Part shown: piece by piece, positions 3,317-42,847 of the stretch | Layout: each line of letters opens with the position of its first letter | Numbering within the stretch: the first letter of the stretch is position 1 | From: a virus | Taxonomy: Duplodnaviria > Heunggongvirae > Uroviricota > Caudoviricetes | Length of the DNA stretch: 42,847 bases | Reading direction: 5' to 3' (one strand) | IMG/VR virus record: IMGVR_UViG_3300045988_015629 | Position numbers and translations under genes: made by a program | The notes under the pieces: generated by a model | What the model was told of the DNA's origin: nothing | Seen by the model: only the letters and a program-made list of their open reading frames with translations | The model's database searches: none

Positions 3317-3778
3317 TTATTCTGGCTTAGTAACCTTCGCTGCTTTACTTACGGCCTCTATACCATCGGCATCAGTGACTTTAACGAAGTATTCACCAAC
3401 TGCGTTAACCGTCAGAGACAGAGCCTCTTCCGGGGCGTTTACCACTTCCTTCCCGTCTTTGTACCAGGTCAGTGCATATGGTGCTTTGCCCGCCTTAACT
3501 TCGACAGCGATATTTGCGCTGCCGTCTGCCAGTTCAGCGTCCTGCGGTTGTACGGAGAAATACACATCACCAGCATCCGCCAGGTACTGAATCTCATAAA
3601 GCATACCTGCCGCTGGCAGCGCAATACCGGTCTTGTCCGCAAACGGCATATCGTCCACTGGGGTTCCGAGTACACTTTCGTCTTCAATAAACACCACGTT
3701 CTCGCCAGAGCCAGACACGCGGGCGTACTGGACTACGCGACGAGACGGTACGTCAGTTACTTTGAAAAAGCCCATCAT
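3317..3778 (-). CDS. Ig-like domain protein (possible head decoration/accessory protein)
   Basis: C-terminal YALTWYKDGKEV...GEYFVKVTDADG resembles Ig-like domains; located in head module. Confidence 0.55.
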   Translation of the reverse strand: MMGFFKVTDVPSRRVVQYARVSGSGENVVFIEDESVLGTPVDDMPFADKTGIALPAAGMLYEIQYLADAGDVYFSVQPQDAELADGSANIAVEVKAGKAPYALTWYKDGKEVVNAPEEALSLTVNAVGEYFVKVTDADGIEAVSKAAKVTKPE

Positions 3779-4854
3779 TAATCCCCTTTCAGATAATCAG
3801 CAACACGTTTATCGAGTTCCGCCATCTGCTTAAGCGTGAGCGGATTCCCGAAACCATCTACAGATATTACGCGAAACTCTTCCGGCGATATACCGCTGTT
3901 ACGGAAAATCTTACCTCGCACCGGGCCGAGCGCCTGGTCCTGAAACCACGCCGGTTGTTGTTTAAGGAACTCGTAGTAAGTGGTATCCGCGCTTACTTGC
4001 GTTCCGCCATCAGCACCTTTGGCAGCACGTTTTGCGCCTGCATCAAGGAAGTCGAACTCTGAGCTAATTACAGGTGCTGTGGTACTTCGACAATTCGGAT
4101 GGGCTGGCGGCGTAGGGCCTTTACCGATTTCCCATGTCATGCCATCTCTGGCCTTGCATATCGTGCTGGTACGGCTGTCCAGTGTTGACACCCATTCGTA
4201 TTTCTCGATGATGTCGCTGTTCTGCCGATAAGTCTCGTTGCGGGCTTCGTTAGATACGTGTGAAAGTGCGGTGCGGATTACGGTAGCGGCATTGCGCTCT
4301 GAGATGTCCGCCAGCCCGCCGGAGCCAACAACGCTCTTGATAATCTGCCGTGTTGTCTGGCCCTGTACAAACCCCATCTTAACGCCAGTTACTAGGCGCG
4401 ACACTTCTGTTTCACCCCAGCCTTCCATAAGTTTCGTGAAATCTGCTGGCTTGTCGCTTAAAGCCAGCGGTCGGAACACAGCGGCGGACCACACCTGCTC
4501 AGCGGTAGGGGTAACAAATTCCGTGTTAACGTTAGCCGCGAGTGTCTTCACATTCCACTCGGCCTCGTACGCCGCCAGTTCCTTAAGGTCTTCTGTCAGC
4601 TTCGTTTGCCAGTCACCGGTTAACCCGGTCAGTGCTTCTTCCAGGTCACGTAACAGTTTATTCAGTCGCGCAGTGCTGCGACCGTCGTCGCCGAATAGCA
4701 GCACCTGCCGTTTGATTTCATCCCGCATCTCCTGAATGAACGGCGCGAGGTCTTTCACCTCACCGGATGCGGTGCGTTGCAGCCATATCTGGTGGCTGAT
4801 TAGTGATGTAAGTAAGCTCATAGATAAACCCTGTGGCGCTAAAGTTAATAGCAT
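3778..4854 (-). CDS. head morphogenesis protein (Mu F / SPP1 gp7-like minor head protein)
   Basis: Conserved EWVSTLDSRTSTICKARDGMTW...PPAHPNCRST region typical of the Mu-F family; follows portal; true start may be the ATG at 4821. Confidence 0.75.
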   Translation of the reverse strand: MLLTLAPQGLSMSLLTSLISHQIWLQRTASGEVKDLAPFIQEMRDEIKRQVLLFGDDGRSTARLNKLLRDLEEALTGLTGDWQTKLTEDLKELAAYEAEWNVKTLAANVNTEFVTPTAEQVWSAAVFRPLALSDKPADFTKLMEGWGETEVSRLVTGVKMGFVQGQTTRQIIKSVVGSGGLADISERNAATVIRTALSHVSNEARNETYRQNSDIIEKYEWVSTLDSRTSTICKARDGMTWEIGKGPTPPAHPNCRSTTAPVISSEFDFLDAGAKRAAKGADGGTQVSADTTYYEFLKQQPAWFQDQALGPVRGKIFRNSGISPEEFRVISVDGFGNPLTLKQMAELDKRVADYLKGD

Positions 4855-13332: not shown

Positions 13333-13526
13333 CCTCCCTCAGAGTCGTCGGCACAAGCATCACGATTCGATGCCGTTCGTATTGCTCGTAAGCTATTTAA
13401 CATTCGCTCGCTGGTAGATGTAATAACCGTTATACCGTCCGCCAGATGCACCTCGTAGCGTTCAGCTACGAAATATATTTCCTCGAAATCATGATGTTTC
13501 AGTTCTTCAAATAATTCTTCCATCAC
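13323..13526 (-). CDS. hypothetical acidic early protein (67 aa)
   Basis: ORF in early operon. Confidence 0.4.
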   Translation of the reverse strand: MMEELFEELKHHDFEEIYFVAERYEVHLADGITVITSTSERMLNSLRAIRTASNRDACADDSEGGCR

Positions 13527-13714
13527 TTCGCCCCTTTAAATTTAAAATTTTTGCCGATGAGTTTTAAGTTCTCCTCCGCTACGTATATTTGTGAATTTAC
13601 TCCTCTCACATTTTGCACGGTAACTACGTACTTTCCTGGAAATAAAGCAGATTTTAATTCAATTATGCCGTGTTTATCGTCGGAGTATTTAACCAACTGA
13701 CCACGTTTAAACAT
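13523..13714 (-). CDS. hypothetical early protein, first gene of the leftward early operon
   Basis: ATG at 13714 with AGGAG RBS; track ORF uses GTG at 13723. Confidence 0.45.
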   Translation of the reverse strand: MFKRGQLVKYSDDKHGIIELKSALFPGKYVVTVQNVRGVNSQIYVAEENLKLIGKNFKFKGAK

Positions 13715-13743
13715 AACCCTCACTCCTCTGTCTCGTTTCGATA

Positions 13744-13779
13744 AGTGAATAGTATCCTATTATGTTGGGGTGTGCAAGA
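13744..13779 (-). promoter_or_regulatory. conserved 36-bp early promoter element (minus-strand TTGCAC-N17-TACTAT; contains GAATAG-N4-CTATTA dyad)
   Basis: About 33/36 identical to 35655-35690 in the opposite orientation. Confidence 0.55.
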
Positions 13780-13822
13780 GAATAGTTACGTTGCCGTTGT
13801 GATTCTTTAGTTTAATGGGATA

Positions 13823-13880
13823 GCGAGCGAAACGAAACGAACGTGGTGCCGAAGGCACCAAGAGTGAGTGAGTGAGCTTG
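13823..13880. repeat. short tandem repeats flanking a hairpin: (CGAAA)2-3, GGTGCC-GAA-GGCACC, (GAGT)4
   Basis: Read directly; lies in the 457-bp divergent control region. Confidence 0.7.
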
Positions 13881-13989
13881 CGGATATAACCCACGGCAAA
13901 TCAGTAACTTAGATATTTAGGCGGGAATTACAATAGACTTTGGGCCTCCCAAACGCGCCAGCGAGCCTCACTCCACACGCTACACGTGC

Positions 13990-14080
13990 TCGTTTCGCCT
14001 GCCGCGCGCCGCGGTCGCTTGTTCATACTTCACAAGCTCAGGCTGAGCTTACCATATTTTTAAGTAAAAGTCAATACCGG
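13990..14080 (-). promoter_or_regulatory. conserved promoter-plus-leader element B (paralog of element A)
   Basis: -35 TTGACT at 14069-14074 and -10 TAAGCT at 14046-14051 on the minus strand; core 14005-14042 identical to 3158-3195. Confidence 0.55.
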
Positions 14081-14121
14081 TAGCATCTTTTGTATCTTAG
14101 TAACTTTGTGTGGTGTTTTGG

Positions 14122-14150
14122 TTGCTTTTACATTCCCGCTATCCTATACT
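14122..14150 (+). promoter_or_regulatory. sigma70-like promoter TTGCTT-N17-TATACT for the rightward replication operon
   Basis: Hexamers with 17-bp spacing about 35 bp upstream of the first plus-strand gene. Confidence 0.45.
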
Positions 14151-14181
14151 TGGCTTCACCAAACAAACAGGAGATTTAAAA

Positions 14182-14364
14182 ATGCAACATTACATGACCC
14201 AGAATGAAGTAGCCGAGCGTATCGGGGTGACACGTCAGACAATTAATAACTGGTTGCGCAGTGGTAAATTCCCGGATTGTTGTATTAAGGTTATGGGCCG
14301 CCGGATGCCGGGAACATTCGACCGTAATAAAGTTGAAGCGTGGATTAAGGAGAACGTGAAATGA
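14182..14364 (+). CDS. small HTH DNA-binding protein (excisionase/AlpA-like fold inferred)
   Basis: MTQNEVAERIGVTRQTINNWLRSGKFP helix-turn-helix signature; ATG at 14182 with GGAG RBS (track ORF uses GTG at 14110). Confidence 0.6.
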   Translation: MQHYMTQNEVAERIGVTRQTINNWLRSGKFPDCCIKVMGRRMPGTFDRNKVEAWIKENVK

Positions 14365-35691: not shown

Positions 35692-35898
35692 ATGAAGGGG
35701 TTTAAAATGTCCAGTTTACCAGTTTCCTTAATTCTGTTTGCACTGCTCGCTTATTTCGCGCCTTTCCTGGTTGCGTACTTCCGTAACCATAAAGCGAAGT
35801 TAGCGATATTCATGGCTAATCTGTTTCTTGGTTGGGTTCTGCTGCCGTGGGTATTTATCTTAATCTGGGCGTGCAACTCGAATGTCAAAGAGAAGTGA
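35692..35898 (+). CDS. small membrane protein (2 TM helices)
   Basis: Two hydrophobic helices; RBS GAAGGGG before the second ATG at 35707. Confidence 0.55.
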   Translation: MKGFKMSSLPVSLILFALLAYFAPFLVAYFRNHKAKLAIFMANLFLGWVLLPWVFILIWACNSNVKEK

Positions 35899-39303: not shown

Positions 39304-39716
39304 AGCCTCTTGGTGAATGCAATAAAGTTAATTGACAATGGTCGTTTGGCCCATCCGTTTTCTACAATCAGCGGCCCCAGGCTAACCGATTGAACCTCGG
39401 CGCAGATGTCGTTACGAGAAAATGACTTACCTGCTTTGAATGCCGTGTTAAGTAAGTCTGCCATTTTATTGATTGGCGCGCTACCTTTCACCGATGCGTA
39501 GTTAATGTCGACCTGATAAACACCCGCGCGTTGTTCCGTGAAGAACAAATCTGCTTGCTCGGTATCCGCCAGTAACATGTAACTTGCCAGATATGGCGTA
39601 TCGGTTGACGTCGGCGCGTCGATGTTTTCAAGCGCGACCTTGATGCCGTTGGCGGTTCCGAAGGCTACCAGCGGAACATCGAACGCTTTTGTTAAGTCCT
39701 CAAAGTAGCCCATCAT
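39300..39716 (-). CDS. tail completion / tail terminator-like protein, putative
   Basis: Position immediately upstream of the major tail protein. Confidence 0.4.
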   Translation of the reverse strand: MMGYFEDLTKAFDVPLVAFGTANGIKVALENIDAPTSTDTPYLASYMLLADTEQADLFFTEQRAGVYQVDINYASVKGSAPINKMADLLNTAFKAGKSFSRNDICAEVQSVSLGPLIVENGWAKRPLSINFIAFTKRL

Positions 39717-40108
39717 TTCACCTTGTTGGCTTCTTCGTTAATGAGTTGCTGGAAGCGAGACACATTAGTCCTGACAACCCCGGCTGGCGCCTGTTGCGAC
39801 CAACCATACTCCAGCCGTTGCGCATACGGCAGATTATTTGTCAGCGTGAACTCATGCCAGTCAGCGGCTTTCAGCACGAAACTCGTAGCGTTTCCGGTTG
39901 CTGTGTTTCCTGATTTATCCGTAGCGTCCGTAATCCCGGAAGCAGGAGTACCGCCAGATGCCATCCAGTTCATACGAAAGCGGCCCGTGTCTACCGGACT
40001 CGCCTTTATAATAGCGGAAAACAGCTTGATAGACACCTGACGCATCACCTTCTCAGGGTTCTTCTTCGCCTTTTCCACGAACTTAGAGACATCGAGCGCG
40101 AAACTCAT
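39713..40108 (-). CDS. HK97 gp10-like head-tail joining protein, putative
   Basis: SPVDTGRFRMNW resembles the conserved VDTGxLRxSW motif of that family. Confidence 0.5.
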   Translation of the reverse strand: MSFALDVSKFVEKAKKNPEKVMRQVSIKLFSAIIKASPVDTGRFRMNWMASGGTPASGITDATDKSGNTATGNATSFVLKAADWHEFTLTNNLPYAQRLEYGWSQQAPAGVVRTNVSRFQQLINEEANKVK

Positions 40109-40464
40109 TTTCTCACCTGAATAAAGTACGCCACGACGTCATCGTTAACCATCTTCTTCTCAATAGCTACGATGGACCATTGCTCGCCGCCGAATTGCAC
40201 CTTGTCTTCCATCTTCGGAACGACGCTGTAATCGGCTTTAACAATCATGTCGCCAGCCTGAATCGTCGTACCGTTTACCAGTCCCGCGTTTACCGGAACC
40301 GGAACGGCCTTCAACGGCAACACTTCATCCGCAGACCAGACGTACTCACCGAGAACTTCATCCCATACTTTTGAACCAGCGCGAATCAGAGATACCGTGC
40401 TACCGAATTTGGTTAGCAGGCGCGTACCCACGCCTTGCATACGTTTACTGAAAGCGGTGCTCAT
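40105..40464 (-). CDS. head-tail connector/adaptor protein, putative
   Basis: Start moved to the ATG at 40464 with AAGAGG RBS (track ORF begins further upstream). Confidence 0.4.
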   Translation of the reverse strand: MSTAFSKRMQGVGTRLLTKFGSTVSLIRAGSKVWDEVLGEYVWSADEVLPLKAVPVPVNAGLVNGTTIQAGDMIVKADYSVVPKMEDKVQFGGEQWSIVAIEKKMVNDDVVAYFIQVRK

Positions 40465-40558
40465 TTTAGCACCTCTTGCAGCGTCAAAAGAACACCGTAA
40501 CTGTGCAAGACTACCGCGGTAAGAAAACCAAAAACTACACCACATGTGAACTTATTCA

Positions 40559-41173
40559 TCAAGCGGCCTCCAGTCTCGAAATAACCAGTAGCGCGGACGG
40601 TGCTGTGCCCCATGCTGTTACGGTAGCGGCTTGTGGGTACACGCCGCCGAAGTTGCTTCCGGCACCATCCCGCATAATCTGAACGGCAAACGTCTGGCCT
40701 GCTGCGGTGTTAATAACGACGCGGGATTCAATCGGGATGGTCACGTCCGCGCTTACCAGCTTAGTTGCTGCGGGAGAGCCGTACTGAGCACCGTTTACTA
40801 AAATACGTGATAGCAGGATTGATGTCCCACTAGCGCCAGTACGCCCCGCCTGTAACTTGATGCGAACGGCGTAGTTACCCGCGGTGTTGAATGTAACAAG
40901 CCCTGCGGCATTAATCATTACCGGGTTAGACGCGCCTCCCTGCGCTGCACCGAAGGTTAGTTGCAACGCCGTGTCAACCGCAGACGGGGCCTGAACGGCG
41001 GTAGACGCAGCCCGTAGCACCTCAACCTCTTTCACCCCCGGAGTGGTGTAAATAGGCGAGTCGTCCATCTGCGTAAGTACGCCACGCAATTTAGCTGGTG
41101 TAATTTGCCCGGTCGTGTTGTCAGGTAGCTCGGACCCGATTAGCGTAAATATCTCTGTTTTAGTCTTCGCCAT
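40559..41173 (-). CDS. hypothetical structural protein (204 aa)
   Basis: G/A/T-rich protein within the head-tail gene block. Confidence 0.4.
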   Translation of the reverse strand: MAKTKTEIFTLIGSELPDNTTGQITPAKLRGVLTQMDDSPIYTTPGVKEVEVLRAASTAVQAPSAVDTALQLTFGAAQGGASNPVMINAAGLVTFNTAGNYAVRIKLQAGRTGASGTSILLSRILVNGAQYGSPAATKLVSADVTIPIESRVVINTAAGQTFAVQIMRDGAGSNFGGVYPQAATVTAWGTAPSALLVISRLEAA

Positions 41174-41175
41174 TT

Positions 41176-41688
41176 TTAACCCCGGTACACATTAAATGAG
41201 AAGCCGTTGTTAAGACCGCCACACAGTAACGGGCGTAAAGCGTCGTCCGCAGCGGTAATAGCAGTTGTAGCCCCGCTGTTGCCGTTGTTGAAGTAGGTCA
41301 CTGTCACCGCACCCTCGACACGCTCAGTCTGCACGGAACGCCCGTCTGAGTTAGCCCGAACATCAGTACCCGCACCATACGTAACCGCAGCGATTACTTG
41401 TGCCCGGATTAACTGCGACGGGATAACATTATCCGCTACGGTGAAGCCGTTTAGTGTTGTTCCTGTACGTGGGTACGCCAGAGACTGTTCAGCGGATACA
41501 CGGCGGCCGCACATCTGCGTTTCGGCGAGCCCGACATAAGTAGCACCATTGCGCAGAGCTACTTCGGCGTCAGTGTCGTCGGCAGGTAACTCAAGACCGT
41601 AATTAGCCGCTAACGCGCGGGCGTCAGCCAGTGAGATGTACGAATCGGCCCCTTCTATAATTTGACCTGTTTCTACGGTTAAGGACAC
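41176..41688 (-). CDS. head-tail adaptor-like structural protein, putative
   Basis: Position downstream of the HNH gene. Confidence 0.4.
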   Translation of the reverse strand: MSLTVETGQIIEGADSYISLADARALAANYGLELPADDTDAEVALRNGATYVGLAETQMCGRRVSAEQSLAYPRTGTTLNGFTVADNVIPSQLIRAQVIAAVTYGAGTDVRANSDGRSVQTERVEGAVTVTYFNNGNSGATTAITAADDALRPLLCGGLNNGFSFNVYRG

Positions 41689-41691
41689 TTT

Positions 41692-42441
41692 TCACCCCTT
41701 CTTACAGTTATCAAAGTGCCACCTCTTTAGAAGAGATAGCGCCCCTTCGGTTCCGCAATGTGGGCATACCCCGCGCGGGCGTTTCATTCCAGTAAGTTTA
41801 TCTGAAATTTTCTTGACAGTCTCGCCCTTTAACGTATGGCCCTTCTTAAAACTTCCGGAGTTAGGTTTTCTATTAACCTTGCCAACGATTCTATTTGGGT
41901 CCGCGAACTGGCATTTCTTGCAGCAATATTTACGCGCTCGTGATTTAAAACGGTAGGGGATCGGCTGGTCGCATGTTACACATCGTTGTGGGTTTGCCAT
42001 GTAATGCTCTATTCTGGCTTTTCTACTTGCAGTTTCCCCGGTAGCAATTCCTTTATTCCACGCCTTTTGCCCTAGATGTGCTTGTCTGAGATTTTCTATA
42101 CGTTTATCAGAAAATTTAACACCAGTATTCAACCTGGACATCTCTATAGCCCAAGCCTCTTTCGCCAACTTAAAGGAATGTGAGGTAACTTTTGACCTTT
42201 GATTGTTTTTAGGGTTAATACACATAACCCTCCAGGCGAAAGCTAGTTCTTTAGTCCCGTGTATCTTATAGAGAAGCCAATGCGCAATAAAATGCTGTCT
42301 AGCGCTCAAAGATACAATATTGTCAAAAGTATCTCCACCACCCATGCATTTCGGGACTATGTGATGTTTTTCGGTATACCCACTAAACGGATTGATTTTT
42401 GCGTTCGATATTAACTGTTCATAGATTTTGGCGTAGTTCAT
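41692..42441 (-). mobile_element. HNH homing endonuclease (free-standing)
   Basis: HHIVPKCMGGGDTFDNIVSLSARQHFIAHW is a canonical HNH motif; C-terminal CxxC pairs; gene is visibly AT-richer than its flanks; TGGTATAAT-like extended -10 upstream. Confidence 0.85.
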
Positions 42442-42496
42442 GATTCACCCTTTTCAATGGAGGATGGATTCATTATACCAACTACGCCAGATATTA

Positions 42497-42676
42497 CTAT
42501 TCCTCAGACTTACGGCGACGACGCTTAGTGCCACCGCCGTTGTTGTGCGCTTCTTCGTTGTCCGGTTGGGTCGCAACCAGCTCATCCGCCTCTACAACAC
42601 CGCGCACGGGTATCACCTGACCATCAACCATATCAACGTGGGTGTACTTTTCGCGGATTACATAATTATCTGCCAT
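42497..42676 (-). CDS. hypothetical small protein (59 aa, just below the track threshold)
   Basis: Hand-translated MADNYVIREKYTHVDMVDGQ...KRRRRKSEE with AAGGAAAGG RBS. Confidence 0.4.
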   Translation of the reverse strand: MADNYVIREKYTHVDMVDGQVIPVRGVVEADELVATQPDNEEAHNNGGGTKRRRRKSEE

Positions 42677-42712
42677 GACCTTTCCTTATTACGGCCCCGA
42701 AGGGACGCGGTA

Positions 42713-42847
42713 TTAAGATACAATTGCTCCGGTGCTGCTGGAGATAATATTACCGTATACATCGTGGACAACCACTTTATACGTACCGGAATCGGTAGTA
42801 GCGAGCGAAGTTTTCTCGTAGGTGGCGGCGGTAGCGCCTGGGATAGC
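42713..42847 (-). CDS. Ig-like domain virion protein, C-terminal part of the junction-spanning gene (see 1..271)
   Basis: Frame continuous with 1..271 across the terminal overlap; stop codon at 42713-42715. Confidence 0.6.
   Translation of the reverse strand, partial: AIPGATAATYEKTSLATTDSGTYKVVVHDVYGNIISSSTGAIVS
42793..42847. repeat. 55-bp exact terminal direct repeat (identical to 1-55)
   Basis: Direct comparison of the first and last 55 nt. Confidence 0.95.

Follow-up and report, generated by a model that had tools for sequence, protein, structure and literature searches.

Mob-type homing endonucleases are well known from T-even phages. MobE of T4, whose gene lies between nrdA and nrdB, nicks nucleotides (nt) 122–126 of the downstream nrdB gene of T2, and nrdB polymorphisms in mobE carriers are thought to prevent self-cutting (PMC2790892). 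T4 mobE has no promoter of its own; it is cotranscribed with nrdA and damped by an internal terminator, and an nrdB promoter inside it protects it from loss (PMC2790892). For I-TevI, I-TevII, I-TevIII, segB, and the mobE of phage Aeh1, the ribosome-binding site of read-through transcripts is paired within a stable RNA structure, and a promoter immediately upstream of, or within, the 5′ arm gives transcripts unable to form that structure; these T-even cases use the T4 late promoter TATAAATA and are expressed late, and I-TevI is additionally autorepressed through an operator that mimics its homing site (PMC2988022). Here, we describe a related gene in the IMG/VR virus record IMGVR_UViG_3300045988_015629, a stretch of 42,847 bp that we refer to throughout as the window. 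The gene (41692..42441, minus strand) encodes a protein of 249 amino acids (aa) from an ATG start, with an HNH motif, NUMOD3-like repeats, and two zinc motifs. We consider it probable, at roughly 80%, that this gene forms part of an 808-bp free-standing homing cassette of the T-even Mob (MobE-like) type, placed between a 59-aa head-module gene and the head-tail adaptor gene Ad1 of a K1G-like Kagunavirus, with homing and expression control as proposed below. What is new is the Ad1-specific lineage to which the gene belongs, the Ad1 5′ allele linked to it, and a leader of predicted promoter-in-hairpin form with a sigma-70-type element.

The assignment to the Mob family comes from the whole length of the protein. 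The HNH signature claimed in the original prediction is intact (EKHH, residues 26–27 being the histidine pair; DN, residue 41; H50; H54) and can be aligned to the HNH core of McrA. Its residues are invariant across 22 homologues of the close clade, which was obtained via exact-protein look-ups; across 88 homologues E24, H26, N41, H50, and H54 are invariant and H27 is not. Behind the N-terminal HNH domain follow the NUMOD3-like repeats, a zinc ribbon of the form CxxC...CxxxC (C154, C157, C173, and C177), and a C-terminal finger of the form CxxC...HxxxC (C226, C229, H242, and C246), with the ligands of both motifs invariant among the 22 homologues. This order, an N-terminal HNH followed by C-terminal DNA-binding modules, is that of T4 and T6 MobE. 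NUMOD3 scores above the Pfam cutoff in two homologues (P0010 and P0017, 21.8 and 23.7 vs. 20.4 bits); a Pfam search at E 0.1 did not report it for the window protein itself, in which the ribbon region shows a weak YacG-like match. PHROG 655, "homing endonuclease," matches residues 1–249 (E 1.4e-55).

In tblastn searches, an identity of at least 99% was found solely to K1G gp13 and to an Esher4 "endonuclease." The K1G protein (gp13/ORF12, YP_009168793.1) is 99.2% identical, is encoded at the same position, and carries the annotation "homing endonuclease; ORF12, similar to T6 mobE"; its status there is one of annotation only, and our literature search found no account of where its insertion begins and ends, how it is distributed, its association with Ad1, or the structure of its leader. 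Behind these two come full-length matches, at 32–34% identity, to T-even-like Mob endonucleases (mobE, mobD, "Mob-like HNH homing endonuclease"; E down to 1e-24), among them T6 mobE with 31.9% identity across residues 1–247 (E 8e-24), and matches in 402 phage records span 80% or more of the query. An AlphaFold2 model of the protein is locally confident (predicted local distance difference test, 87.9) and extended (predicted template modeling score, 0.51); compared with solved structures, it gave no whole-length match and weak local matches to HNH domains. The ratio of nonsynonymous to synonymous substitution rates (dN/dS) against an 85% identical homologue is 0.08, which shows that the protein is under purifying selection. 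We infer from these similarities that the gene encodes a Mob-type (MobE-like) homing endonuclease, presumably with nuclease activity.

The window represents almost the whole genome, in circularly permuted form, of an Escherichia coli siphophage, a K1G-like Kagunavirus (Guernseyvirinae): end-to-end alignment gives ~96% identity to Escherichia phage K1G and ~95% to phage MirsaeidiM_Esher4 (Esher4), positions 1 and 42847 of the window are adjacent on the circular K1G map (K1G 7636 and 7582), and a Hoc-like decoration gene is split across its ends. Downstream of that decoration gene stands the 59-aa head-module gene (42497..42676, minus strand; PHROG 4451), followed by the endonuclease gene and by Ad1 (41176..41688, minus strand; Pfam DnaT_2, E 3e-50; PHROG 477), which we presume to be the target gene. 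A position inside the structural module had been claimed for the gene, and this is where it lies, between a decoration-proximal gene and a head-tail adaptor gene. Whereas T4 and T6 mobE lie in T-even phages beside a gene of nucleotide metabolism, the host here is a siphophage of 43 kb and the neighbor a head-tail adaptor gene.

To place the boundaries, we aligned the junctions with those of the HNH-less phage Bas75. The inserted cassette spans 808 bp (41689..42496, minus strand; boundaries within ~2 nt), from just past the stop codon of the 59-aa gene, which forms its upstream edge, to 1 nt ahead of the Ad1 start codon. An empty site such as that of Bas75 consists of the stop codon of the 59-aa gene, 3 nt, and the Ad1 ATG; the cassette recreates this junction, its own stop codon having the same 3-nt spacing to the Ad1 start. 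As read from the sequence and compared with Bas75, the endonuclease gene provides the Shine–Dalgarno sequence of Ad1 in its last codons and stop (AAGGGGTGA; 41692..41700, minus strand), so that the structural operon should still work after insertion. Homologue loci have the same stop-to-start arrangement with Ad1 or a 7-nt overlap. As in T4 and T6 MobE, the gene is intergenic, sits directly upstream of a conserved gene, and bears an expression signal for that gene at its 3′ end; the two systems also share a target in the 5′ end of the downstream gene, mapped for MobE and presumed here. The neighboring open reading frames (ORFs) are intact, and inspection of the flanking ORFs and junctions revealed no intron or intein arrangement, in agreement with the earlier description of the gene as free-standing.

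The gene is rare among relatives. Only 3 of the 115 Kagunavirus records that match the flanks of the insertion encode it, namely K1G, represented twice (GenBank and RefSeq), and Esher4; the presence/absence polymorphism that the original prediction had suggested looking for thus exists, with a precise empty site. The cassettes of the window, K1G, and Esher4 are 99.4–99.8% identical (2–4 differences in the 750-bp ORF), whereas the 3′ 405 nt of Ad1 are 83–92% and the next gene 84–94% identical. The near-identical tract shared by the window and Esher4 (41628–42528) extends beyond the cassette by 61 nt into Ad1 and by 32 nt into the 59-aa gene. Both the distribution and the contrast of cassette and flanks (99.4–99.8% vs. 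83–94%) bear out the suggestion of horizontal acquisition and point to a lateral spread that is recent.

This distribution also bears on the second role that had been offered for the gene, that of a terminase-associated helper in cos cleavage or DNA packaging. HNH proteins of the HK97 gp74 type are small (~100 aa), their genes stand next to terminase and portal genes, and they are conserved among relatives that share the packaging system. The gene described here resembles them in its HNH motif and in being encoded within the morphogenesis module, and differs in size, architecture, neighborhood, and distribution: roughly 112 of the 115 related records (~97%) lack it and have the same terminase packaging; ~6.8 kb separate it from the terminase genes, a distance taken up by portal, head-morphogenesis, lysis, scaffold, capsid, and decoration genes; and its 249-aa product, with NUMOD3 and zinc-finger modules and similarity to Mob proteins over its full length, is not a stand-alone HNH domain of ~100 aa. 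We consider a packaging function highly improbable and rejected it on distribution, distance, and architecture; of the two roles originally proposed, it is homing that PHROG 655 and the Mob similarity favor.

The lower guanine-plus-cytosine (GC) content noted originally was also found. The ORF has a GC content of 0.428 and the inserted segment one of 0.423, compared with a window mean of 0.510 (standard deviation 0.030, 750-bp windows); <1% of 750-bp windows match the low GC of the ORF, and the lowest of the entire sequence is 41781–42530. GC at third codon positions is 0.43 in the endonuclease gene versus 0.53–0.57 in the flanking genes. In all nine homologue loci measured, the endonuclease gene lies 3–15 GC points under its flanks.

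In a large protein collection, homologues range in graded steps from 85% to about 40% identity. Nine of these (85, 72, 70, 67, 56, 55, 54, 51, and 50% identity) are each encoded immediately upstream of a DnaT_2/Ad1 gene; the contig of a tenth (46%) ends before the downstream gene. Most of the nine loci are on Kagunavirus-like contigs of 43–45 kb, and some have quite different upstream neighbors, so it is the Ad1 side of the locus that is constant. Scans of IMG/VR and Joint Genome Institute (JGI) metagenome contigs added few close homologues (L017, L018, and L097 only).

The association extends into Ad1 itself. When the first 129 nt of the window Ad1 were used as a blastn query, ~105 of the 115 records aligned from nt 58 onward only; the full stretch aligned only in carriers of the endonuclease gene and in five phages with a different small ORF at the site. 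The first 61 nt of Ad1 (41628..41688, minus strand), which belong to the near-identical tract of the window and Esher4, thus travel with the cassette. We compared the codons of seven carriers, two small-ORF alleles, and four empty alleles: at Ad1 codons 9–16 (41641–41664; QIIEGADS in the window, with serine as TCG), all seven carriers read Q-I-I-(E/D/A)-G-A-D-S with serine as TCG or TCA, whereas all four empty-site phages read (A/E/S)-(I/V)-V-P-N-A-D-S with serine as AGT or AGC. Carriers of the QII-type allele include metagenomic ones whose endonuclease is 67–85% identical to that of the window. The same pattern is known from T4 and T6 MobE, where polymorphisms in the 5′ part of the downstream gene separate carriers from noncarriers, and by this analogy the target would lie within roughly the first 60 nt of empty-type Ad1. 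The Ad1 start codon (41686–41688) is GTG in the window, K1G, Esher4, and the metagenomic carriers L013, L177, L008, and L180, and ATG in the four empty-site and two small-ORF phages examined.

The homing of the cassette may be pictured as follows. In a mixed infection with a cassette-less relative, the enzyme would bind and nick or cut the 5′ end of the relative's Ad1, by analogy with T4 MobE; recombinational repair would then copy in the cassette and, along with it, the first ~60 nt of the donor Ad1, and this co-copied stretch, carrying the variant allele, may protect carriers from self-cleavage.

Alternatively, the endonuclease could have homed in the past and now be stranded or domesticated, fixed in a small lineage and kept for the Ad1 ribosome-binding site, for a promoter that may drive downstream genes, or for excluding co-infecting relatives without spreading. 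A clean deletion would be costly because the last codons of the gene contain the Ad1 Shine–Dalgarno sequence, T4 mobE is comparably protected from loss by its internal nrdB promoter, and in some distant homologue loci a terminator stands ahead of the cassette, so that the cassette promoter may also serve Ad1. However, purifying selection acts on the whole protein, the catalytic residues and zinc ligands are all invariant, near-identical cassettes sit in backbones that differ by 8–17% directly beside them, and the gene is rare among relatives, all of which fits ongoing spread better than fixation. We therefore regard a stranded gene as quite unlikely and favor a cassette that still homes.

The extended −10 element claimed upstream of the gene on the minus strand is present as TGGTATAAT (42472..42480, minus strand), 31 nt upstream of the endonuclease ATG and within the 55-nt gap. 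It is the only exact TGnTATAAT match on both strands of the window; as ~0.9 such matches are expected per window by chance, it is the position of the element that counts and not its occurrence. Because it lies inside the insertion, it arrived with the cassette. Transcription is predicted to begin with the A at 42465, 7 nt past the hexamer. In nine non-identical leaders of homologues, a −10-like hexamer occurs at a fixed position with A2 and T6 invariant and a TG just upstream (TATAAT, TACTAT, TATTAT, TACCAT, CACTAT, and TACAAT), although the surroundings of the hexamer differ in sequence; the eight Kagunavirus-like leaders, aligned in register, also share an invariant A 7 nt past the hexamer, where +1 is expected. 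Use of the element as a promoter, and its timing, are predictions.

The element is enclosed by a perfect 10-bp stem formed by TGGCGTAGTT (5′ arm; 42480..42489, minus strand) and AACTACGCCA (3′ arm; 42429..42438, minus strand), the latter covering codons 2–4 of the endonuclease gene, so that the −10, the Shine–Dalgarno sequence, and the AUG all lie within it. This outer stem is the only inverted repeat of at least 9 nt within 120 nt in the region 41500–42700, and the 69-nt fold containing it has a predicted energy of −21.5 kcal/mol (z-score −4.1), which was reached by none of 200 shuffles. The 5′ arm is kept in L013 and L015 and is one base shorter in K1G. As it lies upstream of the predicted start, it would be present only in read-through transcripts.

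A second, local hairpin (42440..42473, minus strand) has its 5′ arm directly downstream of, and in part overlapping, the hexamer, and holds the Shine–Dalgarno sequence GGGTGA (42445–42450) in its 3′ arm. In five homologues the local hairpin folds with z-scores of −3.0 to −5.9, and its arms vary and stay complementary: GCTCC/GGAGC, GGCCCC/GGGGCC, and CTCC/GGAG, with flanking ATG/CAT or TACTATG/CATAGTA. To assess covariation of the leaders, we folded each sequence separately, tabulated pairing partners, and ran a permutation test on chimeras. Three columns of the leader alignment (8, 12, and 13) show compensatory changes, and the native combinations of 5′ and 3′ halves have a mean of −12.5 kcal/mol versus −7.6 kcal/mol for all chimeric combinations, the native total being equaled in 1 of 20,000 permutations. 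RNAalifold predicted no pairs on the MAFFT alignment of the leaders, which is explained by the 3′ arms being out of register there, and an Rfam search of 41000–42847 gave no match.

On this basis, the cassette would supply its own sigma-70-type extended −10. On read-through transcripts from the upstream structural genes, the Shine–Dalgarno sequence and AUG are predicted by folding to be paired, masking the ribosome-binding site, whereas transcripts starting at the cassette promoter (predicted +1 at 42465) would lack the 5′ arms and be translatable. This predicted geometry is that of Aeh1 mobE, I-TevI, I-TevII, I-TevIII, and segB; unlike these, the leaders described here have a sigma-70-type TATAAT or TAnnAT preceded by TG, and no late sigma factor is known for the phage. 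In contrast to the promoterless mobE of T4, the gene has a −10-like element and a folded leader, and a terminator like the one inside T4 mobE was not found on the minus strand within the ORF.

Several observations weigh against this reading of the locus as a homing cassette with its own switch. The Pfam HNH score of the protein stays under the gathering cutoff (18.4 vs. 21.4 bits, E 0.0025). Since the whole endonuclease family is low in GC, GC content by itself is no proof of recent arrival. The block 39700–40600 is 100% identical in the window, K1G, and Esher4, with 76–95% identity in the regions on either side, which shows mosaic recombination to be general in this phage group and independent of the endonuclease; the identity contrast at the cassette alone is therefore no proof of homing. 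The five small-ORF phages also hold the carrier-type Ad1 allele, and the allele difference could reflect simple hitch-hiking rather than immunity. As for expression, a two-hexamer promoter scan omits the TGGTATAAT site because there is no −35 match; T4 MobE, being promoterless, shows that regulation differs within the Mob family; the outer stem is kept in the 85% and 72% identical homologues without covariation; and the local hairpin of the window folds no better than shuffles (z-score −0.5), so that the predicted masking in the window phage rests on the outer 10-bp stem.

These last points would suit an explanation in which TGGTATAAT and the inverted repeats arose by chance in an AT-rich spacer and the gene is expressed by read-through alone, as is T4 mobE: about one TGnTATAAT is expected per window, a −35 is missing, and the window folds into a weak local hairpin. 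Yet chance would have to account for a hexamer with invariant A2 and T6 at a constant position in nine non-identical leaders whose surroundings differ, for stem arms that covary, and for an outer stem that is the sole such repeat in 1.2 kb with a z-score of −4.1. A chance origin thus seems unlikely to us, and we prefer a promoter within a masking hairpin.

Beyond the close homologues, many leaders of the wider Mob-like genes have TATAAATA inside a hairpin that pairs with the Shine–Dalgarno sequence; 22% of the wider Mob-like leaders have z-scores below −2, compared with 9% of control ORF starts. The many distant Mob-like genes with TATAAATA in a strong hairpin suggest that a switch of the promoter-in-hairpin form is common in the Mob-like family. 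Distant metagenomic examples include L051, L054, L059, L061, L092, L100, L154, L162, and L171, with z-scores down to −8.7.

A conserved motif, which forms part of the local hairpin, lies at the predicted transcription start, TCCATCCTCCAT in the window (42457–42468) and CCCATCTTCTAC, in some cases with one or two substitutions, in seven homologue leaders. In three loci, CCCATCTTCTAC is the reverse complement of Ad1 codons 4–7 (GTAGAAGATGGG, V-E-D-G): the match is 11/12 in L012 (2948–2959 vs. 3732–3743; P < 0.003), 10/12 in L011 (2976–2987 vs. 3759–3770; P 0.014), and 9/12 in L178 (1474–1485 vs. 2262–2273; P about 0.1). In the window and other phages of the V-E-T-G type, the match of the leader motif to the phage's own Ad1 is at chance level (P about 0.5). 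The sequence GTAGAAGATGGG is widespread at Ad1 starts in IMG/VR contigs, where 41 of 120 pattern matches were confirmed as Ad1, and none of these 41 has a homologue of the endonuclease upstream. The motif could be an operator that mimics the homing site, permitting autorepression in the manner of I-TevI, or the match to Ad1 could represent a long-range RNA pairing.

Taken further, these findings could be drawn together into a so far undescribed lineage of Mob-type endonucleases specialized on the 5′ end of Ad1 (DnaT_2) in several siphophage groups, with a portable switch, a promoter inside a hairpin that masks the ribosome-binding site, adapted to a host sigma-70 −10 in place of the T4 late promoter TATAAATA, and with the leader motif as a homing-site-mimicking operator; in this full form we offer the idea tentatively, as it is more doubtful than probable.

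For annotation, the gene is to be treated as a selfish mobile gene and not as a structural or packaging component, in line with the label that the 99% identical K1G copy already bears. The locus offers a natural system outside the T-even phages for the homing of a free-standing endonuclease: carriers share their host with >100 sequenced relatives whose site is empty, the predicted target patch of ~60 nt lies within an essential virion gene, and the predicted regulatory switch parallels that of T4 with a host-type promoter. In therapy mixes or engineered Kagunaviruses, the cassette could bias the inheritance of alleles around Ad1 in mixed infections.

The gap between the 59-aa gene and Ad1 is occupied in other phages as well. 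Kagunavirus LM02P1 (L004) has a different insertion there, a 50-aa Cys-rich ORF (MNIVRRLLCTHKYRTV...CQECTKCGAIRYVGGDKC; 3680–3832, minus strand), and the gap is also occupied in phages M01, CR01, ST20, and AMO_3701M. A promoter-like spacer is missing from the LM02P1 insertion. Its ORF gives no Pfam match and resembles the HNH cassette neither in DNA nor in protein sequence, so we ruled out that it is a decayed form of the cassette. Because the small-ORF phages hold the carrier-type Ad1 codons 9–16, the gap looks like an insertion hot spot, or like a place where the endonuclease was replaced.

Two other islands of low GC are present in the window. One (35692–35898, plus strand; GC about 0.42–0.45) encodes a predicted membrane protein of 68 aa and falls in a region annotated as "immunity to superinfection" in K1G; the other (13461–14210; GC 0.417) contains small early-region ORFs, including a helix-turn-helix-like ORF of 84 aa. 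Both look like accessory genes of the moron type.

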